A DNA stretch of 64,000 bases, taken from Deltaproteobacteria bacterium. GTDB taxonomy: Bacteria; Desulfobacterota; Deferrimicrobia; J040. The stretch spans positions 68,751 to 132,750 of the forward strand of contig WVXK01000062.1 in assembly GCA_011773515.1 (NCBI GenBank). Direction: 5' to 3'. The notes beneath the pieces are model-generated. The model saw nothing but the letters and a program-made list of their open reading frames with translations, was not told the origin of the DNA and made no database searches. The translations under genes and the position numbers were made by a program. Each line of letters opens with the position of its first letter. Position 1 is the first letter of the stretch. Shown here one piece after another: positions 2,070 to 23,081 of the stretch.

Positions 2070-4649
2070 TCAACTCTCAATCGAAAAGCGCAATCCCTCT
2101 TCACCCCGGTCAACGCTGACGACTGCACCTTCGGGGATCTCGCCGGAGATGATCCTGTGAGCGATGACATCGAGCACATGTTTCTGGATAGCCCTTTTCA
2201 GGGGTCTTGCCCCAAACACGGGATCCCATCCGCTCTCCACGATGAACTTCTTTGCACCTCCCGTAAGGTGTATCGATATATTCCTGTCCTTCAGGAGTGC
2301 CTCAACACTTTTGAGCTGAATATCGACAATTTTGACCAGGTCATCCTTTCCAAGGTTTCTGAATAGAACCGTCTCGTCGATCCTGTTGAGAAATTCCGGC
2401 TTGAAATGTCTCTTCAACTCTTCGAGAACCAGTTCTCCGCCCCGGTCAAAATCCTTTTCCGCCCATTCCTGGATTATGTGGCTTCCCACGTTTGACGTCA
2501 TAATTATAACAGTGTTTTTAAAATCCACGGTTCTGCCCTGGTTGTCGGTAAGACGCCCATCATCGAGTACCTGAAGGAATATATCGAAGACGCTCGAGTG
2601 GGCCTTTTCGATCTCGTCGAAAAGTATGACCGTGTAGGGCCTTCTTCTCACCGCTTCCGTCAACTGTCCCCCCTCCTCGTAGCCCACGTATCCGGGCGGA
2701 GCGCCTATCAGCCGGGCCACCGAGTGTTTTTCCATATACTCTGACATGTCGATCCTCACCATCGCGCTCTCTTCATCGAAGAGAAATTCGGCCAGGGCCC
2801 TGGCAAGCTCCGTCTTCCCGACTCCCGTGGGACCGAGAAATACAAAAGATCCTATCGGGCGGCCCGGGTCCTTGAGGCCGGCACGCCCCCTTCTCACGGC
2901 GTTTGAAACAAGTTCCACCGCCTTATCCTGACCGACCACCCGCTCCATGAGCTTTTCCTCCATTTTCAGGAGCTTGATGGACTCCGACTCCAGCAACCTC
3001 GTAACGGGTATCCTCGTCCACGTCGAGACGATTTCCGCAATGTCATCCTCGGTAACCTCCTCCTTCAGAAATCTTCTTTCCCCGGACAACCCCTCGATCT
3101 CTTCCTGCACCCGGCCCAGCTCCCGCATGAGCTCGGGCAAAACTCCGTAATTCAACCTGGATGCCCGCTCGAGGTCACCCTCCCGCTCGGCTATTTCTAT
3201 CTCGTTCTTGTTCGATTCGATCTTTTCTTTGATCTCCTGAACACGGGATATTATCCCCTTTTCTTTTTGCCATTGCCCGGTGAGCTCTTCCATCTCGCCA
3301 CGTAACTTTTGGATCTCCGTTTCAAATCGACCCAGTTTCTCCCGCGATGCGGCGTCATCTTCTCGCGACAGAGCCTTTTTCTCCATCTCGAGCTGCATGA
3401 TCTTCCTCTGGATCTCATCTATTTCGGTCGGTTTGCTGTCAATTTCTATTCTCAGCCTGGACCCTGCCTCATCAATGAGATCGACCGCCTTGTCGGGGAG
3501 AAATCTGTCGGAGATGTAGCGATGGGATAGAACGGCGGCAGCGATCAGGGCCGAGTCCCTGAACCTGACCCCATGGTGAACCTCGTACCGTTCCTTGAGA
3601 CCCCGGAGGATAGCAATGGTGCCCTCGACGGTCGGTTCCGTCACCATGACGGGCTGAAATCTCCGTTCGAGGGCCGGGTCCTTCTCGATGTTTTTCCTGT
3701 ACTCATCGAGAGTCGTTGCTCCGATACATCTCAGTTCCCCCCGTGCAAGGGGGGGCTTCAGCATGTTTGAAGCATCGATGGCCCCTTCGGCACTGCCTGC
3801 CCCAACAACCGTGTGCAGCTCGTCTATGAAGAGGATGATATCCCCCCCGGAATCGACGACCTCCTTGATCACCGCTTTTAGTCTCTCCTCAAACTCACCT
3901 CTGAACTTTGCCCCCGCAACCAGGGCCCCCATGTCAAGGGCTATGATTCTCTTCTCCTTCAGAGACTCCGGCACATCCTTTGCGAGAATCCTCCTTGCAA
4001 GTCCCTCCACGATAGCGGTTTTTCCCACACCGGCCTCACCGATGAGAACGGGGTTATTTTTCGTCCTCCTCGAGAGCACCTGGACTATCCTTCTTATCTC
4101 CTCATCCCTCCCGATTACGGGGTCGAGTTTTCCTGCCCTCGCAAGGTCGGTAAGATCCTTTCCGTATTTTTCCAGTGGCCTGTACCTGTCCTCCGGAGAT
4201 TCATCGGTTATCCGCATGCTCCCCCTCATTTCCGAAAGGGCCTTCAGGACCGCCTCCCTGGATACCCCCTGGCCGGCAAGAATTTTTGCAACGGATCCGC
4301 TCTCCTTATGGATTGCCCCCAGGAGAACGTGCTCGCCGGAAATATATTCGTCATTGAGCGCTTCCATCTCCCGTAAGGAAAGATCGAGCAGTTTTTCCAT
4401 TTCAGGGGTGATGTATTTCTGTGTAACCCCTGAAACCCTGGGAAGTTTTTCGAGCGCCCCGTCAATTTCTGACACGACCCTCTCAGGGGAGATCCCGATT
4501 TTTTTCACGATATCGCGCGCACTGCTCTCTTTTTCGGACAACAAAGCGTGGATCAGATGGGCACTGTCGATGAACTGGTGCCCCCGGGAATCTGACAGGT
4601 TTCTCGCCTTTTCTATGGCTTCCCGTGTTTTTATGGTAAACCTCTCCAT
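2070..4649 (-). CDS. clpB: chaperone ClpB (AAA+ disaggregase)
   Basis: Track ORF 2070..4814; true start ATG at 4647-4649 ([15 protein letters not shown]) preceded by GGAGG RBS. Two AAA+ modules ([13 protein letters not shown]; [12 protein letters not shown]) and the long coiled-coil middle domain typical of ClpB; no ClpP-binding loop. Confidence 0.95.
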
Positions 4650-4703
4650 GCTAATCACTGGAGAAACCTCCTCTTTTTTACCGTCGTCAATTATGAAAAC
4701 AAC

Positions 4704-4735
4704 AAAAAAAAACCCTCCCGGCAGGGCCGGGAGGG
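4704..4735 (-). terminator. rho-independent terminator after degP
   Basis: Minus strand CCCTCCCGGC-CCT-GCCGGGAGGG (perfect 10-bp GC stem) followed by a U9 run, 12 nt after the degP TAG stop. Confidence 0.8.
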
Positions 4736-4746
4736 GCTCGTGCCGG

Positions 4747-6192
4747 CTATTGCTTTTTGACAACCACGTACATTCTCCTTTCCCCTCTCTCGACGAGAAA
4801 AAGAACGCTGTCATCAGCTGAACCCTTTTTCAGGGCTTCCCTGAACTCATTCAAACTCCCGATGCGGTTTCTGTTCACCTGCCTTATGATGTCTCTCTCA
4901 CGAATACCGGCATCATCGGTGGGAGATCCCGACGCCACGCCGGTGACAATCACCCCTTTCATGTCCTCAATCTCCATGTGCTTCGCTATTTCCTCGGTGA
5001 TGTCCTGAACGGTCAGTCCCAGGTCCCCAATAATGTCCGTCTTTGCCATGGTGACCTCTTCGGGCATCTCTCCGAGTTTTACCTCCACAGTCTGCTCTTT
5101 ACCGTCCCTTATTATCCCGACCTTGACCTTCGTGCCAGGTGGGGTATCTGCAACGATGGCAGGGAGTTGCTGCGCATCCTCGATCTTCTTGGCGTTGAAT
5201 TCCTTCAGCACATCTCCCTCTTTCAATCCGGCGCTCTCGGCTGGTGAGTCTTTCATCACCTCCGTGATGATCACCCCGTCCTTGGACTCGAGGTTGAGAG
5301 ATTTCGCCATGTCATCGGTTATGCTCTGCATGTAGATTCCGAGCCACCCCCGAACGACCTTTCCCCGCTCCTTCAGCTGCGCGAAAACGGTCTTGGCCAT
5401 GTTGACGGGTATGGCGAAACCGATCCCCTGCCCACCCTGAACGATGGCTGTGTTGATCCCCACCACTTCTCCCTTCAGGTTGAAGAGGGGACCTCCGCTG
5501 TTTCCGGGGTTGATGGAGGCGTCGGTCTGGATGAAGTCATCGTAGGGTCCCGATCCGATTACCCTTCCTTTCGCGCTCACGATTCCCGTCGTTACCGTGT
5601 GATCGAGGCCGAAGGGGTTCCCTATCGCAACGACCCACTCACCCACTTTCAGAGAATCCGAGTCACCCATCTCCACCGTTGGCAGGGTATCTCCGTTCCT
5701 TATCCGTATAAGCGCTATATCCGTCTTCGGATCGGTCCCTATGATTTCCGCCTCGAACTCCTTCCCGTCGTGCAGCTTCACCGTTATCTCGTCAGCCCGC
5801 TGTACAACGTGACTGTTCGTAAGTATGAACCCGTCTCCCGACACGATAAAGCCCGACCCGAGAGATCGCCTCTTCTGCTCCCTCGGCATCCTGCCGAAAA
5901 AATCCTCGAAAAACTCCTCAAAGGGATCCCGGGAGAAAGGGCTTCTGAATTGCGGCTTTCTGAACTTCACGATGGTCGTGGTGCTGATGTTCACGATGGA
6001 ATCTTTCACCCCCTCTACGAGCTCCGGGATGTTCGTGGGAAGATTGAAGTTGCTTTCTTTCTGTTCGCCGGGCTTCTTCTCGATATAGGCAGCATCCGTT
6101 TTTTCCAGCAATTTTCCATCTTTGCCGTGAATAATCAGCCCAACCAAAATCACCAGTGCCAGAAGGAGCACACCGATTCTTACCTTCCTCAT
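4747..6192 (-). CDS. degP: periplasmic serine endoprotease DegP/HtrA family (trypsin domain + 2 PDZ)
   Basis: 481 aa; signal peptide [19 protein letters not shown]; catalytic motifs [15 protein letters not shown]; two PDZ-like regions; ATG with AAAGGAGGTGG RBS. Confidence 0.9.
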
Positions 6193-6230
6193 CGCAATCC
6201 ACCTCCTTTTATCGGGTAGACGCCCCTCAT

Positions 6231-6713
6231 CTATGGATTATTCGATACGCCCTGCGCAACCTTCACGTAAACCATCCTCAGCTGGGAAAGGTATTCTTTG
6301 ATCAATGAATCTTCTTCCTCGGACAGGTTTCCCCTCGTTTTACGCTCCAGGACCCCGAGAAGGTCGATATATTGCCTGGCAATCTCCAGATTCGGCTCCC
6401 CGGGTGTCATCCCCTCACCTTCGAGCATGCCCAGTGAGGCCAGTGCCTGCATAAAAAAAGACTTCACGATGTCGGTGAAATCGGGTTCGTGGTATCGGGG
6501 GGGGGTCTCCCGGGCGTAATCTCCGCTCCCACCCGTTTTTTCGGCGGGCCCTTCGCTCTTTTTCGGCTCTTGACTCGCGTCTTTTGCCTGCTTGGCCCCC
6601 TCAGCTGCCCTGGACCCCACGGGAGGGACATCGCTTTTTTCTTCCGGTGCGTCCTCTCTTCCGATTCTCCTCTTGTCGATAACCCTGAACCCCTTCTCCT
6701 TCTCATCACCCAT
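6231..6713 (-). CDS. DUF1844-family hypothetical protein, translationally coupled to upstream Clp ATPase
   Basis: 160 aa; Lys/Glu-rich N-terminus then PDFTDIVKSFFMQALASLGMLEG (DUF1844-like core). Its ATG (6711-6713) directly abuts the TAG stop of the ClpA-like gene (TAGATG). Confidence 0.7.
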   Translation of the reverse strand: MGDEKEKGFRVIDKRRIGREDAPEEKSDVPPVGSRAAEGAKQAKDASQEPKKSEGPAEKTGGSGDYARETPPRYHEPDFTDIVKSFFMQALASLGMLEGEGMTPGEPNLEIARQYIDLLGVLERKTRGNLSEEEDSLIKEYLSQLRMVYVKVAQGVSNNP

Positions 6714-8981
6714 CTATACACCAACCTCCTTTTGGTTCACCACGAGATCCCCCTCAACGAGATCGAGGTAAAACATGTCCGACTCATTCCACATGAGCGT
6801 TATCGGGATCTTCACTTTCTCATCTATCGTCCTCTTGAGAAACCGTGCGCCGTATTTGATGCTGAACCCGATTTCAGAGAGAAAACCCAGAGATTCATCC
6901 GAGTACTGGAGGTCCTTTCCGTATTCGGCCATCGTCTTCTTGATCGTTTTCAGGTACATTTCCGCTATTTTCCTCACCTCCTCCATCGGGAGGAACCTGA
7001 AGACGATCACATCGTCAATTCGATTTATAAACTCGGGCGAAAAGCGTTCCTCAACGAGATTTATCACGCTCTTTTTCACCGATTCGTAGTTGGCATCTCC
7101 CACGTCAAAGCCCAGCGGCTTTGTCAGCCTCGAATACTCGCCGGCACCCAGGTTGCTCGTCATGATTATGATCGAATCGCTGAAGTATACCTTTTTGCCC
7201 CTGCCGTCGGTGAGCCACCCTTCATCGAAAACCTGGAGGAAAAGGTTGAGAACGTACTGGTCAGCCTTTTCGATCTCGTCCAGGAGGACCACGGTGTAGG
7301 GGTTGTCTTTTATCTGATTCGTCAAAATCCCGCCTCTCTCGGAGCCGACGATTCCCCGGGGCATGCCGATAAGTTTATCTACCGAGACGGTGCCGTCCCG
7401 GTACTCCGACATATCCACCCTCACCATCTTCTGATCATCACCGAAAAGGCATTGTGACAGCGCCTTTGCCATCTCCGTCTTGCCCACACCCGTCGGCCCC
7501 AGGAAAAGCAGAACGCCGTCCGGCTTGTAATAATTTTCCTTCAGGGGCCCCTTGTTCAGGCGCAGCGCCCTGCCCACGGCCTGGATTGCCTCGATCTGTC
7601 CCACCACTCTCGCCGTAAGGTCCTCCTCGATATGGGCGAACCTGTCCACAACATCCCGCTTGATTATGTCTACCGGTGTCTTGATCTCCTTCGATATCAC
7701 GCCGATGATATCCTCGGATGTGACGACTTTGTCCTTGTTCTCGATTTCAACCCTAACCGCTGCCGTATCGATCCAGTTGATAACCTTATCGGGGAGCCTC
7801 AGCGACCTTGCATATCTCTTGGACATGGAAAGAGCCATCTCTATTGCCTCATCGTCTATCACCACGCCATAATTAGACTCGAGACGGGGTTTGAGGCCGT
7901 AGAGTATCTCCCGCGTTTCCTCTATGGTGGGCTCGTCGATTTTTACGATTCTGAACCTCCTCGACAGAGCCTCGTCTTCCTGGATAATTTCCTTGTATTC
8001 CGTCGTGGTCGTTGCCCCTATCATCTGCACTTCACCCCGCGCCAGGGAGGACTTGAATATGTTCGCCGCATCGGAAGGAACACCCATGGCGGACCCGGCC
8101 CCGATAATTGTGTGGGCCTCGTCGACAAAGAGAATTATGTTCTTTTTCTCTCTGAGCTCATTTATGATCTTCTCGATCCTGTCCTCGAACATACCCCTGA
8201 ATACCGTACCGGCGACAACCGTGTTCATCTGAAGGTTGACCACCTGGTGGCCTCTCAGCCGCGGGGGCACCCTGTGGGGCTCGAACTCGAGGCGCAGCGC
8301 AACGCCCTCCACAACGGCGGTCTTACCCACACCGGGATCCCCCGTAACCATCACCGAATTGCACCTGTCCTTGTGGCAGAGAATTTCGAGAATCATATCG
8401 ATCTCATCTTCCCTTCCGATGACGGGGGGAATTTTTCCCTCCCTTGCCAGCAGGTTCAGGTTCACACCAAAGGTGCGAAGGTTAGTGGGAAGCTCGTATC
8501 TCTTCTTGAGGTCTTCGTATTTTTCCTCCCGCGTCTTCAGGTGCATGCTGAACTTCGAAAGGGCTGCCTGCGGATCGACCCCGTAACTCTTGAAAATTCT
8601 TGCCGGTATCGAATGTGTCTCGTGGAAGATTGCAAGAAAAATATCGGGAGGTTCGATGAGATTTCTCTTGTTCCTCTGTGTGGTTTCCCACGCGATGCGA
8701 AACACCTGTTTCGTCGCAGGGGGGATCTTCATGCCCACACCCAGGTATTGCCGCGAGATGCTCAAGTACTCCTTCAGGCTGTATATTACCGACTCAGGCT
8801 CGAGGCCGACGCTCTTTACCAGGTCCTGAAAGAGCTGCTTTTCAACCCCCGAAAAGGATATGAAGAGGTGTTCGAGCCCGAGGTAGTAGTGATGCCTCTT
8901 CTGGGACTCCTCGATGGCACTTGAAAGCATCTTCTGTGCTTTCTCGGTAAGTCTCTCTCTGTAGAACGCGATCTCCATCAT
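6714..8981 (-). CDS. ClpA/ClpC-family AAA+ unfoldase (Clp_N repeats + two AAA modules + ClpP-docking LGF loop)
   Basis: 755 aa; N-terminal double Clp_N repeat; Walker A GDPGVGKTAVVEG and [13 protein letters not shown]; KPLGFDVG tripeptide loop in D2 consistent with ClpP binding; ATG with GAGGG RBS. Confidence 0.9.
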   Translation of the reverse strand: MMEIAFYRERLTEKAQKMLSSAIEESQKRHHYYLGLEHLFISFSGVEKQLFQDLVKSVGLEPESVIYSLKEYLSISRQYLGVGMKIPPATKQVFRIAWETTQRNKRNLIEPPDIFLAIFHETHSIPARIFKSYGVDPQAALSKFSMHLKTREEKYEDLKKRYELPTNLRTFGVNLNLLAREGKIPPVIGREDEIDMILEILCHKDRCNSVMVTGDPGVGKTAVVEGVALRLEFEPHRVPPRLRGHQVVNLQMNTVVAGTVFRGMFEDRIEKIINELREKKNIILFVDEAHTIIGAGSAMGVPSDAANIFKSSLARGEVQMIGATTTTEYKEIIQEDEALSRRFRIVKIDEPTIEETREILYGLKPRLESNYGVVIDDEAIEMALSMSKRYARSLRLPDKVINWIDTAAVRVEIENKDKVVTSEDIIGVISKEIKTPVDIIKRDVVDRFAHIEEDLTARVVGQIEAIQAVGRALRLNKGPLKENYYKPDGVLLFLGPTGVGKTEMAKALSQCLFGDDQKMVRVDMSEYRDGTVSVDKLIGMPRGIVGSERGGILTNQIKDNPYTVVLLDEIEKADQYVLNLFLQVFDEGWLTDGRGKKVYFSDSIIIMTSNLGAGEYSRLTKPLGFDVGDANYESVKKSVINLVEERFSPEFINRIDDVIVFRFLPMEEVRKIAEMYLKTIKKTMAEYGKDLQYSDESLGFLSEIGFSIKYGARFLKRTIDEKVKIPITLMWNESDMFYLDLVEGDLVVNQKEVGV

Positions 8982-8993
8982 GGCTCTTTACCC

Positions 8994-9851
8994 TCAAGCT
9001 GACGTTCCCGCCATTTTTGACAGCCTCTGTATTCTTTCCTCAAGTGGCGGGTGAGTTGAGAAAAGAGCCCCGAACGCCCTTCGTCCGGAAAAATTGTTGA
9101 CGATAAACAGATGGGATGTGGCCGGGTTCGCCGCGATCGGGCGCGAGGGCCGGTATCCTCCAAGTTTTCTCAATGCGCTTGCAAGGTTCTCGGGTTTCCC
9201 GGATAGCTTCGCTCCTGAGGCATCGGCGAGATATTCCCTGCCCCGTGAGATTCCCAGCTGTATAACCATGGCGGCAATCGGCGCAAAGATCGCCACCGCC
9301 AGCAGCCCGAGAATTCCTCCTTCCCCGTCGTCGTCTCTGCCGCCGATGCCGAATATTGCAGCGAATCGTGCCATGGAGGCGAGCATCATGACTGCGCCGG
9401 CAAGGGTGGCAGCAACTGTCTGTATCAGCGTATCCCGGTTTCTGATATGGGCAAGCTCATGGGCCAAAACGCCCTCTATTTCGTCCTCCGTGAGCAAACC
9501 GAGCAATCCCGTGGTTACTGCCACGGCAGAGTTTTCCGGGTTTCGCCCGGTGGCAAAAGCGTTCGGCGTCGGATTCGGCACCACACACACTTTGGGCATG
9601 GGGAGGCCACCGGCCCGCGTCAATTCCCTTACGATGCGGTACAACTGGGGATACTCACCTTCATCGGCCTCCTTGGCCCTGTACATGCCGAGTACGATCC
9701 TGTCTGAAAACCAGTAGCTTCCGAAGTTAAAGAGAATGGCAAAGACAAAAGCGATGAGCATCCCCTGTCTTCCGCCAAACAAGCTCCCAATAACCAGCAG
9801 AAGGCCCGTCAGGAGGCTGAGAAGTATTGCCGTTCTAAACGTGCTCGTCAT
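8994..9851 (-). CDS. htpX: membrane zinc metalloprotease HtpX (M48)
   Basis: 285 aa, TM helices, HELAHIRNRD (HExxH) motif, typical HtpX length and topology. Confidence 0.9.
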   Translation of the reverse strand: MTSTFRTAILLSLLTGLLLVIGSLFGGRQGMLIAFVFAILFNFGSYWFSDRIVLGMYRAKEADEGEYPQLYRIVRELTRAGGLPMPKVCVVPNPTPNAFATGRNPENSAVAVTTGLLGLLTEDEIEGVLAHELAHIRNRDTLIQTVAATLAGAVMMLASMARFAAIFGIGGRDDDGEGGILGLLAVAIFAPIAAMVIQLGISRGREYLADASGAKLSGKPENLASALRKLGGYRPSRPIAANPATSHLFIVNNFSGRRAFGALFSTHPPLEERIQRLSKMAGTSA

Positions 9852-9896
9852 CTCTGTTCACCCCATTCTTGCATTTTTCGAAACCTGTTCCCCGAT

Positions 9897-10979
9897 CTAC
9901 TCTGAGTACCTACTCCTTATATCATTATCTTCCCATTTTGCCATTTCTTTAACAAGTCTTCTGTACGCCTCGTCCTGATTTCTGGGAAGGACAACCCTGA
10001 CCACGACATACTGGTCACCCCTTCCCCCGCCGCTTTTGTATGCGCCCTTGCCCTTCAACCGTATCTTCTTTCCGCTCTCGGTACCCGGGGGAATCTTCAC
10101 CTTCACCGTGCCGTCTATGGTCGGCACCTCGATCGTGGCCCCGAGAACAGCCTCAGAGTAATTGAGAGGAACTTCCATGAATATATCGAATCCCTCTCTC
10201 TTGAAGAACCGGTGGGCTCCTACCTCGACTTCCAGGTAGAGATCCCCTGAGCCTCCACCAGCTCTGCCCATCTCTCCTTTTCCTGCAACTCTCACCTTCG
10301 TTCCCCTGCTTGCGCCCGGTGGGATTTTGACCTTAATCCTTTCCGAGACATCTTTCATCCCCGCGCCAATGCATGACCCGCAGGGGGAACCGGTAAATCC
10401 TGCCCCCCTGCAACTTTCACAGGGCTGGGCTATACCCAATATCCCTCCCCCGCGCTTCATCCGCCCGCTGCCCCCGCAGGTTGCACAGGTGGATCGGGCA
10501 CCCGCCTGAATTCCTACTCCCCCGCAGTCAGGGCATTCCACGCGCCTTCTGTAGCTCAGCTCCCTTTCGGTCCCCTTTGCCGCCTCCAGAAAAGAGAGTT
10601 CGGCCCTGATCACGAGATCTCTTCCCCGCGTTGGTCCCCACTCACCATGTCCGGAACGCCCGAAAATATCCCCGAATATGTCTCCCAGGTCGAAGGACAT
10701 TCCCCTTCCGCCGGGATAGTCAAACCCTGAAAAACCCTCGAATCCGCCGGAGGAAAAGGCTCCCCTCTTCACGGCATCGTACTGCGCTTTCTTGCTCTCG
10801 TCGGATAGAACATCATGAGCTTCGTTTATTTCTTTGAACTTTTTCTCCGCTTCCTCATTCCCCGGATTTACGTCGGGATGATATTTCTTCGCAAGTCTTC
10901 TGAACGCTCTCTTTATCTCCTCTTTCGTGGCGCTTTCCGGGATGCCAAGTATTTTGTAATAGTCCCTTGAAAAATCCAT
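9897..10979 (-). CDS. dnaJ: chaperone DnaJ
   Basis: 360 aa; J-domain (YYKILGIPESATKEEIKRAFRRLAKKYHPDVN), G/F region, four CxxCxGxG zinc-finger repeats, C-terminal domains. Confidence 0.95.
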   Translation of the reverse strand: MDFSRDYYKILGIPESATKEEIKRAFRRLAKKYHPDVNPGNEEAEKKFKEINEAHDVLSDESKKAQYDAVKRGAFSSGGFEGFSGFDYPGGRGMSFDLGDIFGDIFGRSGHGEWGPTRGRDLVIRAELSFLEAAKGTERELSYRRRVECPDCGGVGIQAGARSTCATCGGSGRMKRGGGILGIAQPCESCRGAGFTGSPCGSCIGAGMKDVSERIKVKIPPGASRGTKVRVAGKGEMGRAGGGSGDLYLEVEVGAHRFFKREGFDIFMEVPLNYSEAVLGATIEVPTIDGTVKVKIPPGTESGKKIRLKGKGAYKSGGGRGDQYVVVRVVLPRNQDEAYRRLVKEMAKWEDNDIRSRYSE

Positions 10980-11020
10980 CCGCCACTTCCTGTCGGTCCA
11001 GCTTTAAGTAAGATGAACCG

Positions 11021-11048
11021 AAAAAAAATAGGGTGCAGATTAAACCCT
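11021..11048 (-). terminator. probable rho-independent terminator between hsp20 and dnaJ
   Basis: Minus strand GAGGGT-ttaatctgc-ACCCT followed by U8; located 12 nt after the hsp20 stop. Short stem, so readthrough into dnaJ is likely. Confidence 0.55.
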
Positions 11049-11059
11049 CAACGCCTGGA

Positions 11060-11512
11060 TTACCCAGCGTTGATGTCTATCTTCTTGGGTCTCACCTCTT
11101 CTTTCTTCGGAAGAATGATCTCGAGGACGCCATCTTTGAACGTAGCCGATACCTTCTCCTGATCAATCTTGGAGTTCAGGGAAAAGGATCTCCTAAAGGA
11201 TCCATACTCGCGCTCCATGAGATGGAAATGCTCCTTGTCCACCTCTTTCTGATACTTCCTCTCGCCCCGTATCGTCAGGATCCCGTCCTTGACCTCGATG
11301 CTTACATCATCCCGGCCTATCCCGGGAAGCTCGGCTGTTACCATCACCTGTGAATCCGTTTCACATATATCCACAGAGGGTGACCAGACGCCTTTTCCCG
11401 GGACATCCTCCTTTTTCCGGGAGCCTCGAAATTTTTCTTCGAAGAGCCTGTTCATCCTGTCCTGAATTAGCGCAAGCTCCCTTAGAGGATCATACCACCT
11501 TACGATAGCCAT
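11060..11512 (-). CDS. small heat-shock protein (Hsp20/alpha-crystallin family)
   Basis: 150 aa; alpha-crystallin domain (AELPGIGRDDVSIEVKDGILTIRGER); AGGAGG RBS 7 nt upstream; only 27 bp downstream of dnaK. Confidence 0.9.
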   Translation of the reverse strand: MAIVRWYDPLRELALIQDRMNRLFEEKFRGSRKKEDVPGKGVWSPSVDICETDSQVMVTAELPGIGRDDVSIEVKDGILTIRGERKYQKEVDKEHFHLMEREYGSFRRSFSLNSKIDQEKVSATFKDGVLEIILPKKEEVRPKKIDINAG

Positions 11513-11539
11513 GACCTGAACCTCCTCTTGTCTTTATCG

Positions 11540-13462
11540 TCATGAACTCGACTTATCCTGATCTTCAAACTCCGCGTCGATAACATCGGAATCGCCCGCC
11601 GCTCCCTCACCGGACGGCTGAGACGCTGTCGCCTCTCCGGCTCCTTCTTCCGGCTCGGCTGTTTTTGCCTGCTTGTACATTATCTCCGCAATCTTGTGGG
11701 CCTCCTTCATCAGCTCGTCTGCAGCAGAGCGAAGGGCGTCTTCGTCATCCGACTTCAGCACTTCTTTTGCCCTGCTCAACCCATCTTCTGCTTTTGAGAC
11801 TTCATCCGGTGGCAGTTCAGAACGGTTCTCGTTCAAAGTCTTCTCTATGTTATAGATGAGGTTGTCGAGATTATTCCTGGCCTCGACGATCCTCCTTTGC
11901 TTTTTGTCCTCTTCAGAGTGAACTTCCGCTTCATCGACCATCCTCTTGATCTCCTCATCGGTTAGTCCCGTAGAGGACGTGACGGTTATCCTCTGTTCCT
12001 TGTTGGTTGCGAGGTCTTTCGCCGAAACATTGAGAATCCCGTTGGCGTCAATGTCGAAGGTCACCTCCACCTTGGGGATTCCCCTGGGTGCCGGGGGAAT
12101 ACCCTCGAGGTGAAATCGACCGAGGGTCCTGTTGGCCCTTGCCATTTCACGTTCACCCTGGAGAACGTGAATCTCCACCGATGTCTGGTTGTCGGCCGCA
12201 GTGGTAAATATCTCGCTCTTTTTGACCGGTATGGTCGTATTTCGCTCGGTAATTTTGGTCATTACGCCCCCGAGTGTCTCTATGCCGAGCGAGAGAGGAG
12301 TAACATCGAGGAGGAGAACGTCCTTGACCTCTCCGCCGAGGACGCCCGCCTGAACCGCCGCCCCGAGGGCAACGACTTCATCGGGGTTCACACCCTTGTG
12401 GGGCTCTTTTCCGAAGAAATTTTTGACCGCCTCCTGAACCTTGGGGATCCTGGTGGAGCCCCCGACGAGAATGATTTCATCGATGTCATCTCCCTTCAAG
12501 TCAGCATCGGAGAGGGCAAGCCTGCAGGGTTCAAGGGTACGCTCAACGATCTGTTCAATCATGGTTTCGAGCTTCGCCCTGGTCAATTTCATGCTGAGGT
12601 GTTTCGGTCCGGAAGCGTCTGCGGTGATAAACGGCAGGTTTATCTCCGTCTCGAGAACAGACGAGAGCTCGATCTTTGCTTTCTCGGCCGCTTCCTTCAG
12701 CCTCTGGAGAGCCATCTTGTCCTTGGACAGGTCTATTCCCTGGTCCTTCCTGAACTCCTCTATGATCCAGTCGATTACCCGCTGATCGATGTTGTCACCG
12801 CCAAGGTGCGTATCCCCGTTGGTCGCTTTCACCTCGACCACATTCTCTCCCACCTCGAGAATGGATATATCGAAGGTACCACCACCAAAATCATACACCG
12901 CTATGACCTCGTTCTTCTTCTTGTCCAGCCCGTATGCCAGTGCTGCAGCGGTGGGCTCGTTGATGATCCTCATCACCTCGAGGCCCGCGATGGTCCCGGC
13001 ATCTTTGGTTGCCTGCCGCTGCGAGTCGTTGAAGTATGCAGGAACGGTGATGACAGCTTTCTTGACCTCCTCGCCGAGATATGCCTCTGCGGCTTTTTTC
13101 AGCTTCCCCAGGACCATGGCCGATATCTGCTGTGGGGTGTAATCCTTGCCTGCAACCAGGATACGAGCGTCGTTGTTCGGCCCGCTCTGTACCTGGTACG
13201 GCACCATCTCTTTTTCTTCCTTTACCTCATCATGGCGCCGTCCCATGAATCGCTTTATCGAAAAGACGGTATTGTCCGGGTTCGTGATTGCCTGTCTTTT
13301 CGCTACCTGCCCGACAAGAACCTGCCCATCCTTTGCGAAAGCAACGACCGACGGGGTCAGCCTGGATCCCTCTTCATTGATGATGACTTTGGGCTCCCCA
13401 CCCTCCATCACCGCGACAACCGACATCGTGGTACCAAGGTCAATACCGATAATCTTTGACAT
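11540..13462 (-). CDS. dnaK: chaperone DnaK (Hsp70)
   Basis: 640 aa; [30 protein letters not shown], full NBD + SBD + lid; GGAGG RBS overlapped by the stop codon of the upstream REC gene. Confidence 0.97.
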
Positions 13463-13478
13463 CGCAAACCTCCGCTCT

Positions 13479-13862
13479 TTATTTTTTGGGCGTTCTGGTA
13501 ATCAACCGTGCGATAAACCGTGAAAGTGTCTCCGGATGGAGGGGCCTGGTGACGAAACCGACGGCACCAGACTCCAGAGCCCGCGTCCACCGCTCCAGAC
13601 TCCCACTTTCAGACATAAAAACCGAGGGGATCGAAGAGGTAATGTCCAGAAGGTTCCCCAGCGGATCATATCCACCGTAGGGTATGTCATCTAGGTCTAT
13701 GAGCGCCATGGAAAACCCGCCTTTTGCCCATTTCTGCCCAAAATCGAGAAGGTCGAGGCAGACCTCGGCTTCGATACCGAAAACACCGAGTTCCTCGACG
13801 AGCTCCCTTATCTCATCTCCCATCTCTTTCCTGCCTACTATGAGCAGAACCCTCGCAAACAT
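13479..13862 (-). CDS. stand-alone atypical receiver (REC/CheY-like) domain protein
   Basis: 127 aa; CheY-like spacing with phosphoacceptor-position Asp (MALIDLDD), Ser at beta4 (VFMSESG), but the acidic Mg-binding pair after beta1 is replaced (IVGRKE) and the beta5 Lys is Arg (VTRPL). GGAGG RBS; TAA stop at 13479-13481 lies inside the dnaK RBS. Confidence 0.75.
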
Positions 13863-13898
13863 TTCGAGATCCTCCAGGTATCCGCGTAGTGATAAGTT

Positions 13899-13913
13899 TC
13901 AAAAGTCATGCCA
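13899..13913 (-). promoter_or_regulatory. weak sigma-54-like -24/-12 element upstream of REC-dnaK (TGGCATG-N4-TTGA)
   Basis: Minus strand aattgTGGCATGacttTTGAaac. -24 GG present; -12 is GA rather than the consensus GC. About 25-nt leader to the REC ATG. Confidence 0.25.
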
Positions 13914-14011: not shown

Positions 14012-14044
14012 CTGCCAAAATGGCCTGGCGTGTCATTTTGGCAG
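14012..14044. promoter_or_regulatory. perfect 10-bp inverted repeat CTGCCAAAAT-N13-ATTTTGGCAG (candidate enhancer/operator)
   Basis: Seen directly; sits between the 3' end of the sigma-54 activator gene and the REC-dnaK start (~165 bp upstream of REC ATG); half-sites contain TGGCA. Confidence 0.5.
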
Positions 14045-14058: not shown

Positions 14059-15468
14059 TTACGGTAATCCGTATTCCTTGATCTTTCTGTAGAGGGTCCT
14101 CACTCCGATACCCAGCATCTTGGCCGCTTTTGTCTTGTTGTTTCCCGTTGCTTTCAAGGCTTCGATTATGGCATTTTTTTCAACCTCATCCAGCGGAATG
14201 ACCACGGCACCCCCATCGTCTTCAGCGGGGGATTCCACCCTTCCCGCGACGGGTATCGGATCCCTTCCTTCTCTGTACCGCTTTCTTTTGAGTTCGGTCG
14301 GGAGAACCTCTTTGGAGATAACCTCCCCCTCCGTGAGCAGAACCATGGATTCGATCACATTTCTCAACTCCCTCACGTTGCCCGGCCATGGGTACTGCTG
14401 AAAAACCCGCATCGCATCAGCCGAAATCCTCTTCTCCTCGAGACCGTTTTCCCTGCACAGGTTTTTTGTGAAATGGATCGCCAGGGTGGGTATATCCTCG
14501 GTTCTCTCTCTCAAAGGCGGAATATGTATCGTAAAGACGCTCAATCTGAAAAAGAGGTCTTCCCGAAACTTTTTCGACGAAACCAAGCCTCTCAGGTCAG
14601 AGTTCGTAGCGGCCACTATCCTCACGTCAACGTTGATGACCTTGCCTCCTCCGACTCTCAGGATCTCTTTCTGCTCGATTGCCCTGAGAAGCTTCGCCTG
14701 CGTCGAGAGAGTGAGGTCACCAATCTCATCGAGGAAGAGTGTCCCATCGGACGCAATTTCGAATTTTCCCTTTACCGCACCGACTGCGCCGGTGAATGCG
14801 CCTTTTTCATGGCCGAACAGTTCCGACTCAAGAATGCTTTCGGTGAGGGCGGCGCAGTTTATCGGCATAAAAAGTTTATCCTTCCGTGGGCTCATCTCGT
14901 GAATCGCACGCGCAACCAGCTCCTTCCCCGTGCCCGACTCACCGAGAATCAGGACGTTTGCCTTCGTGGGGGCGACCATGCGCACCATCTGCATTACCTT
15001 CTCCATTTCCCGCGACCGGTAGAGAATTTCACCGACTTCGGTTTTAACCAGTCTTCTCAGTGTCCCCAGCTCTTCCATCATCCCCCGAGCTCGAATCGTC
15101 TTGATCAGGACACCTTTCAGCTCTTCCATGTCAATGGGTTTTTGAAGGTAATCCGTCGCCCCTTCTTTGATTGCGTGGACTGCATTTCCGATCGTCCCGA
15201 AAGCCGTGAGGACGATTACCGGAGCGTGAGGATGGGCCTCTTTCACTTTCCTGATTACTTCCATGCCGTCTAAACCCGGCATTTTCATGTCTGTTATGAT
15301 TATGTCGCCCCCGGAATCATCGATGCGGGAGATAAACTCCAGGGGGGAATTGAAAAGCCTCACCTCGAAACCCAGGTTCGTAAGTGCCCTCCCGATGCTC
15401 GTGAGATTTTCTTTGTCATCATCGATAACCGTTACGCTTTTTCCGGAAAATTCCGGGAGCGATTTCAT
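14059..15468 (-). CDS. sigma-54-dependent response regulator (NtrC family: REC + AAA sigma-54 activator + Fis-type HTH)
   Basis: Track ORF extends to 15711 (alt start); true start ATG 15466-15468 (MKSLPEFSGKSVTVIDDDKEN) with GGAGG RBS. Canonical REC (DDD, D in IITDMKMPG, T, K); GESGTGKE Walker A, GAFTGA sigma-54 contact motif; C-terminal HTH AAKMLGIGVRTLYRKIKEYGL. Confidence 0.93.
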   Translation of the reverse strand: MKSLPEFSGKSVTVIDDDKENLTSIGRALTNLGFEVRLFNSPLEFISRIDDSGGDIIITDMKMPGLDGMEVIRKVKEAHPHAPVIVLTAFGTIGNAVHAIKEGATDYLQKPIDMEELKGVLIKTIRARGMMEELGTLRRLVKTEVGEILYRSREMEKVMQMVRMVAPTKANVLILGESGTGKELVARAIHEMSPRKDKLFMPINCAALTESILESELFGHEKGAFTGAVGAVKGKFEIASDGTLFLDEIGDLTLSTQAKLLRAIEQKEILRVGGGKVINVDVRIVAATNSDLRGLVSSKKFREDLFFRLSVFTIHIPPLRERTEDIPTLAIHFTKNLCRENGLEEKRISADAMRVFQQYPWPGNVRELRNVIESMVLLTEGEVISKEVLPTELKRKRYREGRDPIPVAGRVESPAEDDGGAVVIPLDEVEKNAIIEALKATGNNKTKAAKMLGIGVRTLYRKIKEYGLP

Positions 15469-16226
15469 TTCACAACCTCCGGAAGGTACCGCCCCCTCTG
15501 TTTCTTCGCCAACACCTCCCGGAAACTTTCCTCCGGAAGGAAAGAGAGGGTAAACTCCGTCCCCTTTCTCTTCCTGCTCCTTATGCGTACCTTGCCGTGA
15601 TGCTCCCTCATTATCCTCTTCACTATCGGCAAACCCAACCCGCTCCCTTCGGTCTTGGTCGTGTAAAACACCGAGAACACTTTTCCCCTGTCCTTCCTTT
15701 CGATCCCGCAACCGTTGTCCTTGACCTTTACGAAATAGAAATTCTCCTCTTTTCCCGTTGTCACCCTGATCGTCTTGTCCTCCTTGTCAAGCGATTCCGC
15801 AGCGTTTAAAAGCACGTTCAAAAGAGCCTGTTTCACCATTTTTTCATCGACGAGAACAGGAAAAGGAGCCTCGTCGGGCAAGTATCGCACCTTAATGTCC
15901 CTGCCACGAAAGTCGACCTCCACGAACCGGACCACTTCCTCGACAACCCTGTTTAGGTCAGTAACGACAAACTCCGGCTTCTTCGGGCGGGTCAGCCGCA
16001 AAAATTCCGAAACGATGTCGTTGAGCCTGTTCAAAACTCGAAGATTCGAGTCGATGATCTCCTGCATTTCTCCTTTCTTTTCAAACCACTCAGGCAGAAG
16101 AAACGTATATTCCGAGAGAAGCTGATTATTGATGCTCAGCGCATTGAGCGGATTTCGAATCTCATGGGCAATGCCGGACAGAGCCGATTCGAGCTCTTCC
16201 TGGGAAACTTTTTTTTTCCGGGCCAT
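15465..16226 (-). CDS. cytoplasmic histidine kinase lacking any sensor/TM domain (HisKA + HATPase_c only)
   Basis: 253 aa; H-box GIAHEIRNPLNAL begins ~17 aa from the N-terminus; G-boxes DNGCGIE, GSGLGLPIVKRIM. 4-nt overlap (ATGA) with the activator gene. Confidence 0.9.
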   Translation of the reverse strand: MARKKKVSQEELESALSGIAHEIRNPLNALSINNQLLSEYTFLLPEWFEKKGEMQEIIDSNLRVLNRLNDIVSEFLRLTRPKKPEFVVTDLNRVVEEVVRFVEVDFRGRDIKVRYLPDEAPFPVLVDEKMVKQALLNVLLNAAESLDKEDKTIRVTTGKEENFYFVKVKDNGCGIERKDRGKVFSVFYTTKTEGSGLGLPIVKRIMREHHGKVRIRSRKRKGTEFTLSFLPEESFREVLAKKQRGRYLPEVVK

Positions 16227-16270: not shown

Positions 16271-16639
16271 TCAAGGATTATTTTCAATCAGGTGGGGGAT
16301 AAAAACATTTTTGATATCGGGAAGATAAATCTTTTCAGCGGGCGTTTCAAGGACCAGTCTCGCTCCTTTTACCGGCAATATAATCCTGTTCGGAGGGATG
16401 TTCCTGATTATCTTCACCACCTCCCCGCTGGATGACACGAAGAAAGCATCTATCCTGAATCTCATGAAAAACGTGTGGATCGAACTGCAGGGAAACAGAA
16501 TCACCGGTTCCCCTACCGTGTGAACTTTCCTGAATGCAAGACCGAAAAACCTCTCAAGGAAAGAGTCAAGAAGACGCGCTTCGACGACCAGGTCCCCCAT
16601 TGAAGAACGGGCCTCTACCGTGACTCTCCCACCGGCCAT
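16271..16639 (-). CDS. DUF192 (COG1430) family protein
   Basis: Track ORF 16271..16741; internal ATG at 16637-39 (MAGGRVTVEAR) chosen because the upstream lipoprotein gene ends at 16662. DUF192-like core (LERFFGLAFR...GEPVILFPCSSIHTFFMRFRIDAFFV). Start uncertain. Confidence 0.65.
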   Translation of the reverse strand: MAGGRVTVEARSSMGDLVVEARLLDSFLERFFGLAFRKVHTVGEPVILFPCSSIHTFFMRFRIDAFFVSSSGEVVKIIRNIPPNRIILPVKGARLVLETPAEKIYLPDIKNVFIPHLIENNP

Positions 16640-16661
16640 ACCAGCCCCCGACTGCGGTCGT

Positions 16662-17201
16662 TCAGAAATAGGTTGCCTCGATGAAGGGAACGAGACCGGT
16701 TCCCAGGTTATCCCCGCCGTCCTCGAGAAAAACGGCTCCATCCCTGGCTTCGAGGCTGATCTGAAAACGGTCCCCCCTTCCCTCCAGCGCGTCGATCAGA
16801 ATATCCGTCACATCGAGAAAGACATAGCTCATCTCATCGGACAGGAAAATCTCGAAGCTTCCCGCGTAGATACCGGACCCCTGGAAGATATCTATCACCA
16901 GCGAGTCTTCAGGAGCAAAGACAGAGTGAACACCGATGAACAGGAAAGCATGCGAAATGAAAGCATGGGGGGGGATGGCGTGAAGGGGGAAGGAAAAAAA
17001 CCCCGTTGAAAAATGACTCTCTACGAGTATCCCGTCGTGAAGGAATATACCCTCGGTATCCACATATCCATCTTCCGAATCGATGCTGACAAGTTCAACG
17101 ACCACGCCATCATCACCATCGAACAGAAACGACCCCTCAACATTGCAGCCGGCAAGCAGAAGGAGCAACGCAACGGGCCCAAGCATCTTTTTCATCTTCA
17201 T
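16662..17201 (-). CDS. acidic lipoprotein of unknown function
   Basis: Track ORF to 17261 (TTG). Likely start MKMKKMLGPVALLLLLAGC (lipobox LAGC) with GGAGG RBS; mature part is Asp/Glu-rich (DGDDGVVVELVSIDSEDGYVDTEG). Coordinates may be off by 1 nt (my line counting disagreed with the track by one base here). Confidence 0.6.
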   Translation of the reverse strand: MKMKKMLGPVALLLLLAGCNVEGSFLFDGDDGVVVELVSIDSEDGYVDTEGIFLHDGILVESHFSTGFFSFPLHAIPPHAFISHAFLFIGVHSVFAPEDSLVIDIFQGSGIYAGSFEIFLSDEMSYVFLDVTDILIDALEGRGDRFQISLEARDGAVFLEDGGDNLGTGLVPFIEATYF

Positions 17202-17353
17202 AGCCCTGACCTCCATGAAAGAGAAGACGGCACGGGCGAAAGCTATATTCACTGAGGGCAACTATATGGTAGCGTATGGCTGGGTGTTATACTATATGCT
17301 GATATGTGCCTTTTTGCTTCACGTGCCACTGAACACATAAGCAGACGGAACGG

Positions 17354-19417
17354 GTGCGGATGCTCACAGGAAAAATAAGAATCGCCGCAATCACCTTGAC
17401 CTGCCTGGCTGCCGGCATGTTTTGCGGAATCCTCTTTGTCTACTTTTCCGGGCCTTTCCCCGATGTGTCGGTGCTGAAGGAATATCGTCCCTACAACGCC
17501 ACGAAAGTGTACGACAAAGACGGCAGAAACATAGCCGAATTTGCCATTGAGCAGAGAACAACCATTCCCCTCGAAGAGATACCGGAGCTCATCAAAAAAG
17601 CCTTCATCGCAGCCGAGGACTCCAAGTTTTACATGCACGGCGGGATAGACCTTTCAGGCATCATGCGCGCCCTCATCAAGAATATCCAAAAATTCAAATT
17701 CTCCCAGGGAGGTTCGACCATCACGCAGCAACTCGTAAAGCTCCTCTACCTGACGCCCGAGAAAAGCATCCGGAGAAAAATCCTCGAGATACTGCTGGCG
17801 ATAAAGGTTGACAATAACCTATCGAAAGACGAGATCCTCGGCCTTTATCTGAACCAGATCTACCTCGGAGAGGGACAGTACGGCGTGAATGCCGCTGCGA
17901 GGACTTACTTCGGGAAGGATCCCGGTGAGCTCACCCTTGGCGAAATAGCCCTCATCGCGGGGCTCCCAAAATCACCCGGTTACTATTCCCCCCGGACTCA
18001 TCCTGAAAGATCCCTCATGCGACGCAGGTACGTCCTCGAACGGATGGTGGACGAGGATTACATAACACAGGAAGATGCCATACTTGCAGCTCTCGAACCG
18101 GTAACGCTCGTTGCGAAAAAGGACAGGTCGACGGGATCTTACTTCGTCGAGTACGTAAGAAGGTACCTCCATGAGAAATATGGTTACGATGTTCTCTACA
18201 AGGGGGGGCTGCAGGTCTACACCACCATGGACAGGGAACTCCAGGAGGTGGCGGAAACGAGCCTGCGCGAGTGGATCGAGGAACTCGAACCAACCATAGA
18301 AAAAAAGAAACGTGATACCGGGCAGGCAGAGATAGAAAAAATCGAAATAGCAGATGAAAGCGGAGATCAGGAGGCAAAGGAGGTCGAACTCCAGGGCGCG
18401 CTTCTGGCGATCGACATCACAAACGGGGAGGTCCTCTCCATAGTTGGGGGCAGGGACTTCTCCCGCTCCCAGTTCAACCGGGCGATCCAGTCCAGGAGGC
18501 AACCGGGTTCGGCTTTCAAACCGGTCATATACGCAGCAGCAATTGATTCGGGCTACACCCCCGCAGACAGGATTGGGGACAATCCCGTGGAATATGTGAA
18601 AAACGAAAAGGAGAACTGGAAACCGACAAACTATGACGAAAAATTCCTCGGCGACATAACCCTCAGGGAGGCGCTTGCCAGATCCAGAAATCTGGCTACC
18701 GTGAGGCTTCTGGAAAAGATTGGCATACAGAAAGCCATTTCGATGGCAAGGACCCTGGGTATCGATTCAAACATACCCGGTGACCTCTCCATAGCACTCG
18801 GCAGCCTCTCACTCTCCCTGATTGACTTATGCCAGGCATACGCAGCCATAGGAAATCTCGGGAAGCAGCCAGAACCCCTCTATATCAGGGAGGTCAGGGA
18901 CATGGGCGGGGAAATACTCGAGAGCAACAAACCCACCCTCACACAAGTATTATCTCCAGAAACGTCGTATATAATGACATACATGCTTCAATCAGTCATC
19001 AGGGATGGAACGGGAAGAAAGGCGAAGTTTCTGGGAACGAATCTTTCGGGGAAAACGGGGACCACGAACGACTACATCGATGCCTGGTTCATCGGTTTTT
19101 CGCCGAGAGTTCTCGCCGGAGTTTGGGTCGGGTTCGACAACCCCATAACCATGGGAAAGGGGAAAACGGGGGCCGTTGCAGCCCTTCCAATCTGGATACG
19201 ATACATGAAAAAGGCGATACGGAAGTATCCCGCCTCCCAGTTCGATCTCGCACCGGGAATCGTGTTTGCAAAAGTCGACCCCAAAAGCGGGTTGAGGGTT
19301 GGCAAAGATAAGAGGGGAATAATGGTACCATTCAGGCTGGGAACCACGCCACCCTGGCTCCAGCCGGAGGTGAAAATGCGGGAGGAGAAGAAAAAATTTC
19401 TGGACGACATTTTATGA
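17354..19417 (+). CDS. mrcA: penicillin-binding protein 1A (bifunctional transglycosylase/transpeptidase)
   Basis: 687 aa; TM anchor; GT51 motifs EDSKFYMHGGID, GGSTITQQL; transpeptidase SAFKP, SGKTGTT. GTG at 17354 or ATG at 17360. Confidence 0.92.
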   Translation: MRMLTGKIRIAAITLTCLAAGMFCGILFVYFSGPFPDVSVLKEYRPYNATKVYDKDGRNIAEFAIEQRTTIPLEEIPELIKKAFIAAEDSKFYMHGGIDLSGIMRALIKNIQKFKFSQGGSTITQQLVKLLYLTPEKSIRRKILEILLAIKVDNNLSKDEILGLYLNQIYLGEGQYGVNAAARTYFGKDPGELTLGEIALIAGLPKSPGYYSPRTHPERSLMRRRYVLERMVDEDYITQEDAILAALEPVTLVAKKDRSTGSYFVEYVRRYLHEKYGYDVLYKGGLQVYTTMDRELQEVAETSLREWIEELEPTIEKKKRDTGQAEIEKIEIADESGDQEAKEVELQGALLAIDITNGEVLSIVGGRDFSRSQFNRAIQSRRQPGSAFKPVIYAAAIDSGYTPADRIGDNPVEYVKNEKENWKPTNYDEKFLGDITLREALARSRNLATVRLLEKIGIQKAISMARTLGIDSNIPGDLSIALGSLSLSLIDLCQAYAAIGNLGKQPEPLYIREVRDMGGEILESNKPTLTQVLSPETSYIMTYMLQSVIRDGTGRKAKFLGTNLSGKTGTTNDYIDAWFIGFSPRVLAGVWVGFDNPITMGKGKTGAVAALPIWIRYMKKAIRKYPASQFDLAPGIVFAKVDPKSGLRVGKDKRGIMVPFRLGTTPPWLQPEVKMREEKKKFLDDIL

Positions 19418-20409: not shown

Positions 20410-20463
20410 TTGAAAGGTAAACCCTTGGCTGTATTCGGGGAACTGTCAGGTCAGCAGCGCTTC

Positions 20464-23080: not shown

Positions 23081-23081
23081 T

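Follow-up and report, generated by a model that had tools for sequence, protein, structure and literature searches.

Receivers that are recognised as such but lack the conserved active-site residues are termed pseudo-receivers (Bourret et al. 2025, PMC12632262). They account for about 6% of bacterial receivers, their typical signatures being loss of the second acidic residue after beta1 (DD2), a bulky residue at T+1 and loss of the Pro at D+4, and what turns them on or off is recognised as a question still to be answered (PMC12632262). Most pseudo-receivers studied so far are orphans with DNA-binding outputs. Here we analyze a stand-alone pseudo-receiver, designated pREC, which has an obvious kinase and activator alongside and a defined output operon. 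Its gene lies on the minus strand of a 64,000-nucleotide stretch, referred to as the window (contig WVXK01000062.1, positions 68,751 to 132,750, of the Deltaproteobacteria bacterium assembly GCA_011773515.1). Gene order and sequence signals make it very likely that pREC is the first cistron of a sigma-54-type proteostasis operon situated downstream of the kinase and the activator. How the protein works is less certain; our preferred reading, to which we assign a probability of roughly 0.4, is that pREC acts without phosphotransfer, through its alpha4-beta5 face and in an amount set by the two-component system.

One described counterpart is CmrRST of Clostridioides difficile, in which an ordinary two-component system may do no more than determine how much of the constitutively active pseudo-receiver CmrT is present; for CmrT, binding to the kinase or to the partner receiver, or action through its level, has been proposed (PMC12632262). 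Like pREC, CmrT has a receiver fold without the conserved active-site residues, is located beside an intact kinase and regulator, and is probably expressed under the control of the neighbouring regulator. It differs in that it carries an OmpR-type DNA-binding output domain and shares an operon with the kinase and regulator, whereas pREC lacks an output domain, has retained the Asp and leads the target chaperone operon behind a sigma-54-type promoter.

Regulators encoded within dnaK operons are represented by HrcA (hrcA-grpE-dnaK-dnaJ) and HspR (dnaK-grpE-dnaJ-hspR). As with pREC, the regulator gene is co-transcribed with dnaK, which ties the levels of the two products together and would allow feedback. 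HrcA and HspR bind DNA and repress sigma-70-type promoters, with an activity that depends on chaperones, whereas pREC has no DNA-binding domain, a sigma-54-type promoter and an operon without grpE. Stand-alone receivers acting by contacts include DivK, which controls a kinase allosterically, the ClpXP adaptor CpdR, and CheY. These resemble pREC in being single receivers with protein binding as the output, often via alpha4-beta5-alpha5; their sites are intact and switched by phosphorylation, whereas pREC is devoid of the end-of-beta1 acids and the Lys. CpdR is dealt with in PMC8973945. For heat-shock control, another account cites the Myxococcus xanthus pair HsfB/HsfA, in which a histidine kinase acts with an NtrC-type activator to control the heat-shock gene lonD (PMC3892784, ref. 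10). The likeness is at the family level, namely a two-component system with a sigma-54 activator placed over a proteostasis or heat-shock gene; in that account the target is lonD and no stand-alone receiver is described at the head of the target operon, whereas here the target is a dnaK-hsp20-dnaJ-htpX-clp cluster. Sigma-54 promoters have also been predicted before chaperone genes in other phyla. Our literature search found no stand-alone receiver or pseudo-receiver leading a sigma-54 dnaK operon beside a sensor-less kinase, in agreement with an earlier note, made from the letters of this DNA, whose author knew of no described example.

pREC is a real gene under strong purifying selection and not a chance open reading frame (ORF). 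The ratio of nonsynonymous to synonymous substitution rates (dN/dS) against orthologues is 0.06-0.07, and in every lineage the frame, which in the window extends from the ATG at 13862..13860 to the TAA at 13481..13479, is intact and the ribosome-binding site conserved. One could suspect that pREC is a functionless relic in decay, or a spurious ORF, given a Pfam score under the gathering cut-off, the loss of catalytic residues and an evolution faster than that of the neighbouring genes; set against the low dN/dS, the intact frame with its ribosome-binding site, almost invariant blocks such as GGYDP and a confident fold prediction, this explanation is refuted for practical purposes. Receiver gene calls in public data vary in their start, e.g. 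L007 840-1238 (132 amino acids, aa), L010 10631-10963 (110 aa) and L019 9001-9348 (115 aa). Alignment and the conserved ribosome-binding site favour the 125-127-aa form over these calls, and in L019 the true start is a GTG located 30 nt upstream of the called ATG.

The position of pREC as the first gene of the dnaK operon, proposed in the earlier note, is confirmed by a sigma-54-type promoter upstream and by the 16 nt that separate it from dnaK (Table 1). Because the spacer is so short, there is no room in it for a promoter or a terminator, and the spacers of orthologues, 16-37 nt long, have the same layout. The same note had located the TAA stop inside the GGAGG ribosome-binding site of dnaK and had deduced co-translation from this overlap. 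The first point is wrong and the second inaccurate: the stop precedes the GGAGG (13473..13469; dnaK ATG at 13462) by 5 nt. No terminator-like sites were found in the intergenic gaps of the operon, and the transcription unit probably comprises pREC-dnaK-hsp20-dnaJ-htpX-clpA/C-like-DUF1844 and continues into htrA and perhaps clpB.

The promoter motif lies 37-51 nt upstream of the pREC ATG and is the single match to TGGCAY-N5-TTGW in the 64-kb window (13913..13899). It forms a conserved island in an otherwise divergent upstream alignment. In 12 of 13 loci, TGGCAY-N5-TTG occurs 40-65 nt from the receiver start as the sole match on that strand of the locus; in L018 the motif was found only with a spacer shortened by one base. 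The two palindromes further upstream presumably serve the adjacent sigma-54 activator as binding sites, or upstream activator sequences (UAS). In 11/11 loci, including L012, a TGYC-N5-GRCA site is present 145-191 nt upstream of the receiver start, and in all of these the palindromes sit 100-140 bp upstream of the promoter. Where insertions separate the activator gene from the operon (L018, L012 and L019), promoter and palindromes stay with the receiver gene. The link between pREC and the adjacent NtrC-type regulator that had been suggested for this locus is thus supported by a conserved promoter and conserved upstream palindromes, and we infer that the kinase and the activator drive the operon. 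A search of the window for the CIRCE operator was negative, and an Rfam scan of the window for RNA thermometers or other elements returned a single tRNA gene (734-804, minus strand) and no further match.

Assignment of pREC to the receiver fold required more than a domain search. The Pfam profile Response_reg (PF00072) matched pREC with 24.5 bits (E 3.2e-5), under the gathering cut-off of 30.2, with orthologues scoring 38.0 (L009), 25.6 (L011), 47.6 (L012), 45.4 (L017) and 52.9 bits (L018). In NCBIfam, pREC weakly matches many response regulators. Comparison with a canonical receiver profile by hhalign gave a probability of 97.5%, and a family profile built from close homologues matched solved receivers including PhoB, CtrA and CheY. 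AlphaFold2 yielded an unusable model with the six close homologues only (predicted local distance difference test, pLDDT, 47.7), which was replaced by a model based on an alignment of 117 sequences with a pLDDT of 86.7 and a predicted template modelling score (pTM) of 0.82. This model has a clean (beta-alpha)5 topology, with strands at residues 3-8, 30-35, 52-56, 80-84 and 102-105 and helices at 16-27, 38-46, 71-77, 89-97 and 110-122. Foldseek searches of the PDB with the model retrieved receiver domains exclusively (TM about 0.7-0.77). Family profile matches, predicted fold and structural neighbours together uphold the description of pREC as a protein consisting of a receiver only.

Profile alignment places V9-G10 of pREC at the positions of PhoB E9-D10, equivalent to CheY D12-D13, and aligns D56 with PhoB D53, S84 with T83 and R106 with K105. 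The phospho-site Asp and the beta4 Ser reported earlier are therefore present, and the beta5 Lys is indeed replaced by Arg. The claim that the acidic pair is missing stands for the canonical positions, although D16-E17 might provide a displaced metal ligand. At T+1 pREC has Glu where Ala or Gly is usual, and the Pro normally found at D+4 is shifted by one residue, while the Y-T coupling residues S84 and F103 (aromatic, K-3) are retained. Since D56 is present, pREC is not a member of the aspartate-less receiver (ALR) subset. With DD1, DD2 and K replaced, pREC is, on the strength of its sequence, a pseudo-receiver by the published definition (PMC12632262), as the earlier label had it. We had considered R11 as a natural equivalent of the CheY substitution D13K and dropped it, because the profile alignments place G10, not R11, at D13.

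To see how pREC relates to other receivers, its family had to be collected by an indirect route. A word-indexed homologue search with pREC returned only six close homologues with 68-100% identity, and an exhaustive search with a hidden Markov model of these six sequences found one cluster at 50% and then generic receivers only, missing the wider family. This was recovered via homologues of the adjacent activator and their gene neighbourhoods. The same gene order appeared at activator identities of 64, 62, 54, 53 and 51%, each time with a 125-127-aa receiver before dnaK. Four further loci of metagenome-assembled genomes (MAGs) came from a species-representative genome collection, the query alignment being made without L012, as its inclusion left no conserved stretch. 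A two-clade profile then retrieved 283 stand-alone receivers, many of them labelled Deferrimicrobiaceae or 'Deltaproteobacteria bacterium', and two more distant members of the family likewise precede dnaK. The order kinase, activator, receiver, DnaK, Hsp20, DnaJ, HtpX, ClpA/C-like was confirmed by tblastn wherever the contig was long enough, and the adjacency of receiver and dnaK, a survey of which had been suggested together with the earlier note, is conserved, together with the rest of this layout, in all ten or so lineages sampled.

Residues were counted in a family alignment of 122 members, nine of which form the degenerate clade of the window. Position 10 is D in 108, G in 8 and E in 2; positions 56 and 58 are D in all 122; position 84 is occupied by S (50), T (39), A (28) or G (5). 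At position 106, the 113 K residues belong to the sister clade, whereas all nine sequences of the window's clade have R. The T+1 residue is A in 92 and E in 8. These counts place pREC in a small degenerate clade within a conserved family. The sister clade, found in Deferrimicrobiaceae-like MAGs (e.g. L017 11621-11998, P0278 and P0281), has its receiver in the same position, in the same operon, behind the same type of sigma-54 promoter and near the same kinase and activator, and profile E values of 1e-34 to 1e-43 assign it to the same gene family. Unlike pREC, sister-clade receivers keep Asp10, a DD(F/W/Y) motif, Lys106, Ala at T+1 and Pro at D+4 and score over the Pfam cut-off (45-53 bits), and they are only 23-32% identical to the window's clade. 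Because this more canonical receiver takes the same place before dnaK across a whole clade of uncultured bacteria, the link between receiver and dnaK is ancestral and the loss of the ligands secondary. Sister-clade receivers are themselves not uniform: the Thr/Ser position holds Ala or Gly in 33/122, and the residue preceding Asp10 is Ala, Thr or Ser and thus non-acidic. The whole receiver family may be drifting away from standard phospho-signalling.

The divergence between the two clades is not spread evenly over the locus. Between the clades, receivers share 23-32% identity, kinases 44-51%, activators 49-56% and DnaK proteins 73-78%, whereas within the sister clade the receiver, at 65-77%, is on a par with kinase and activator. 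This difference indicates a burst of receiver change on the branch that leads to the window. An origin of pREC by recent duplication of the activator's receiver was rejected, the two being 17% identical.

Within the nine-member clade, alpha4 (LERWTRALE, residues 89-97) is the most conserved element of the receiver, with a majority fraction of 0.98 and seven of nine positions invariant, followed by the loops that adjoin alpha4 and by beta5. The lowest values are those of alpha2 (0.54), the beta1-alpha1 loop (0.60) and alpha1 (0.61). The sister clade has KARRMWAVE in place of the pREC alpha4 sequence, the Trp having moved by two positions. In receivers, alpha1 is the usual kinase-docking surface and alpha4-beta5-alpha5 the usual output or dimerisation surface. 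The observed pattern therefore fits partner binding via alpha4-beta5 and not a protein that needs to be recognised by a kinase. By eye, the alpha1 'specificity' residues of pREC and of the activator's receiver show no convincing similarity in the window's clade; this comparison was not used as evidence. The beta3-alpha3 loop IPYGGYDP (residues 57-70; 13653-13694, minus strand) is also almost invariant in the window's clade, the GGYDP block in particular, although the model has its lowest confidence at residues 61-70 (mean pLDDT about 60). This loop may be a second partner-binding element.

Our preferred reading, phosphotransfer-independent action through alpha4-beta5, would operate as follows. 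The kinase would phosphorylate the activator, which would bind the palindromes and open the sigma-54 promoter. As pREC and DnaK share this operon under the kinase and the activator, pREC would be produced in constant proportion to DnaK each time the system is activated. The ancestor of pREC would have been a more canonical stand-alone receiver, probably phosphorylated by the same kinase. In the clade of the window, other residues then took the place of the Asp at the end of beta1, the Lys, the small residue at T+1 and the Pro at D+4, and alpha4 was rebuilt and subsequently frozen. Given these replacements and the history of alpha4, pREC would now work mainly without phosphotransfer, and the signal would lie in its concentration, which the two-component system sets. 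The alpha4-beta5 face would contact a partner, most likely either the activator's receiver or the kinase, so that pREC would feed back on the expression of its own operon; the discussion of CmrRST puts forward the same two options for a pseudo-receiver embedded in a two-component system (PMC12632262).

Several observations weigh against this reading. The activity of the promoter and the control of the operon by the kinase and the activator are deduced from sequence signals and the arrangement of the genes. In every locus the -12 GC element is without its C, a departure from the consensus throughout the clade, the motif ending in TTGA, TTGT or TTGG (the window and L001, L003, L008, L009, L011, L012, L013, L016, L017, L019 and L020), and among the large window ORFs scanned, which were housekeeping genes only, there was neither rpoN nor another regulator. 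The poor conservation of alpha1 speaks against docking on the kinase in the usual manner and therefore weakens the version in which the kinase is the partner. The remaining observations concern the active site, where the change from K to R at 106 is conservative, D56 and D58 are invariant and could still constitute a site in use, two members of the degenerate clade (P0005 and P0006) keep D or E at position 10, and a D16-E/D/Q17 pair at the start of alpha1 is conserved in the window's clade and might complete the metal site from a long loop. In the secondary structure of the model, beta1 ends at residue 8 and alpha1 begins at residue 16, which makes the beta1-alpha1 loop 7 residues long in place of the usual 3. 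Residual phospho-acceptor activity via D16-E17 is thus possible.

If this activity were retained, with D16/E17 (or E13) reaching the metal site and R106 replacing the Lys, pREC could be a phosphate sink that competes with the activator for phosphate from the kinase and exerts negative feedback, switching the operon off as its products accumulate. The invariance of D56 and D58, the retention of S84 and F103, the acids at position 10 of P0005 and P0006 and the occurrence of two candidate receivers for the kinase in the locus of every genome would all suit such a role. The parent family moreover looks phosphorylatable; the DD(F/W/Y) motif of the sister clade, in the beta1-alpha1 region, is aligned with the canonical pair by Pfam, HMMER and hhalign, and a second conserved Asp follows beta1 immediately. 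Whether the pair is intact in pREC depends on the alignment. MAFFT with CheY and the sister clade does set D16-E17 in the canonical place, as a realignment favourable to an intact pair would have it, whereas the larger family alignment and HMMER applied to the clade itself do not; the homology of D16-E17 to the sister-clade DD hinges on the placement of an indel, on which the two alignments disagree. By columns, M14-G15 and not D16-E17 fall under the parent DD, and the window's clade has no conserved acid at positions 13-15. Furthermore, alpha1 is poorly conserved, the divergence burst fits a changed function, and Glu at T+1 should obstruct the approach to the Asp (PMC12632262). On balance, we regard a phosphate sink as an unlikely function of pREC.

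A frozen alpha4 surface implies a conserved partner, which could also belong to the chaperone and protease machinery that the operon encodes. pREC might then assist DnaK/DnaJ or the ClpA/C-like unfoldase as an adaptor or cofactor, or be an unstable client of DnaK that reports chaperone load through its free level. A DnaK client or sensor had also been put forward in the earlier note, as had an anti-activator of the NtrC-type regulator; both are hypotheses. The invariant pREC-dnaK order with its 16-37-nt spacer entails near-stoichiometric synthesis, and the same operon encodes an unfoldase whose [LIV]-G-F motif is presumed to belong to the ClpP-docking type. CpdR and RssB, receivers that stand alone or form part of a larger protein, serve ClpXP. 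DnaK prefers segments in which a hydrophobic core is flanked by basic residues, and the G-R-K after beta1 in place of acidic residues would give pREC such a segment, R-VLLIV-GRK; the argument is valid for the unfolded protein only. That receiver proteins can act as protease adaptors is established (PMC8973945). Co-location with the kinase and activator is, however, as conserved as that with dnaK, and no fusion of the receiver to a chaperone or protease domain was found among the 283 family members. We consider direct service to the chaperones or proteases improbable, about as much so as the phosphate sink.

The genes around pREC are listed in Table 1. The activator has a Sigma54_activat domain (228.9 bits), i.e. 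an AAA+ domain with GAFTGA, and its receiver is canonical (DDD, D, T, K). The kinase, with its H-box at about residue 21, has no sensor domain and no membrane segment, and its length is identical in all orthologues; it might depend on a partner protein for sensing. Upstream of the kinase, on the same strand (16271-17261, minus), are two genes, one for a DUF192 protein and the other for a protein of 179 aa that carries a lipoprotein-type signal (LLAGC). Both are present in most orthologous loci and only one in some, and the two genes may belong to the kinase-activator transcript.

Just downstream of kinase and activator, the cluster has the order pREC-dnaK-hsp20-dnaJ-htpX-clpA/C-like-DUF1844-htrA-clpB. 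The htrA gene is probably still part of it, as the order is kept in L009, L010, L017, L019 and L020, and the true start of clpB is probably further downstream than that of the ORF, since orthologues have 856-866 aa. grpE is not in or beside the dnaK operon in any sampled locus (window 2070-13862; L009, L010, L017, L019 and L020), and the number of hsp20 copies in the cluster varies from one to three by lineage. The 755-aa unfoldase (6714-8981) contains KPLGFD, with an [LIV]-G-[FL] tripeptide, read from the sequence, that we take to be of the ClpP-docking type; the protein is therefore more likely to be an unfoldase coupled to a protease than a disaggregase. Three loci have insertions between the activator gene and the receiver-dnaK operon, namely a MASE1-PAS hybrid histidine kinase that itself contains a receiver in L018 (5642-8515), purL on the opposite strand in L012 (6385-10323), and multihaem cytochromes together with a chemoreceptor in L019 (3820-8745). 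A wider synteny extends across the clade (window 17354-21912 and 22340-27393; L003, L009, L010 and L017) and includes a class A penicillin-binding protein, a MoaA-type radical SAM protein, RtcB, archease, a metallophosphoesterase and a BcrAD/BadFG-type ATPase, which helps to recognise orthologous loci.

Table 1. Features of the pREC locus in window coordinates; a dot denotes a feature given without strand.
Feature	Position	Strand	Size and remarks
Histidine kinase, HisKA + HATPase_c only	15465..16226	-	253 aa; stop overlaps activator ATG
NtrC-type sigma-54 activator	14059..15468	-	469 aa from ATG at 15468; Fis-type helix-turn-helix
Two 13-bp palindromes, TGCCAAAATGACA (14043..14031) and GGCCATTTTGGCA (14025..14013)	14013..14043	.	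about 115 bp upstream of promoter
Sigma-54-type promoter TGGCAT-N5-TTGA, TGGCATGACTTTTGA	13899..13913	-	-24 GG at 13912/13911, -12 G at 13900
Ribosome-binding site of pREC, GGAGG	13871..13875	-	8 nt before ATG; kept in 5/5 loci aligned
pREC, stand-alone degenerate receiver (pseudo-receiver)	13479..13862	-	127 aa
Spacer from pREC stop to dnaK ATG	13463..13478	-	16 nt; contains dnaK GGAGG
dnaK (HSP70)	11540..13462	-	640 aa
hsp20, small heat-shock protein	11060..11512	-	150 aa
dnaJ	9897..10979	-	360 aa
htpX-type M48 membrane protease	8994..9851	-	285 aa
ClpA/ClpC-like double AAA+ unfoldase	6714..8981	-	755 aa; without a middle domain of ClpB length
DUF1844 protein	6231..6713	-	160 aa; directly abuts unfoldase gene
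HtrA/DegP-type serine protease, two PDZ domains	4747..6192	-	481 aa
ClpB-type disaggregase	2070..4814	-	ORF of 914 aa; conserved after htrA

The main value of the locus lies in a natural pair of orthologues, one more canonical and one degenerate, in the same genomic setting, with which the passage from phospho-signalling to phosphorylation-independent signalling could be put to the test. More speculatively, and in our estimate rather improbably, the heat-shock or proteostasis response of this Deferrimicrobiota-like clade as a whole could be run by a self-contained two-component circuit, not of the sigma-32 or HrcA type, in which the sensor-less kinase and the sigma-54 activator drive a single large operon of chaperones and proteases, and the receiver, as a feedback or sensing element, couples chaperone load to the activity of the kinase or the activator and, in the lineage of the window, does so independently of phosphorylation, solely through its abundance and its alpha4 surface. 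The arrangement points to a heat-shock circuit assembled from two-component and sigma-54 parts, with a small receiver made together with DnaK. If that receiver feeds back, it would represent a new solution for matching chaperone supply to demand.

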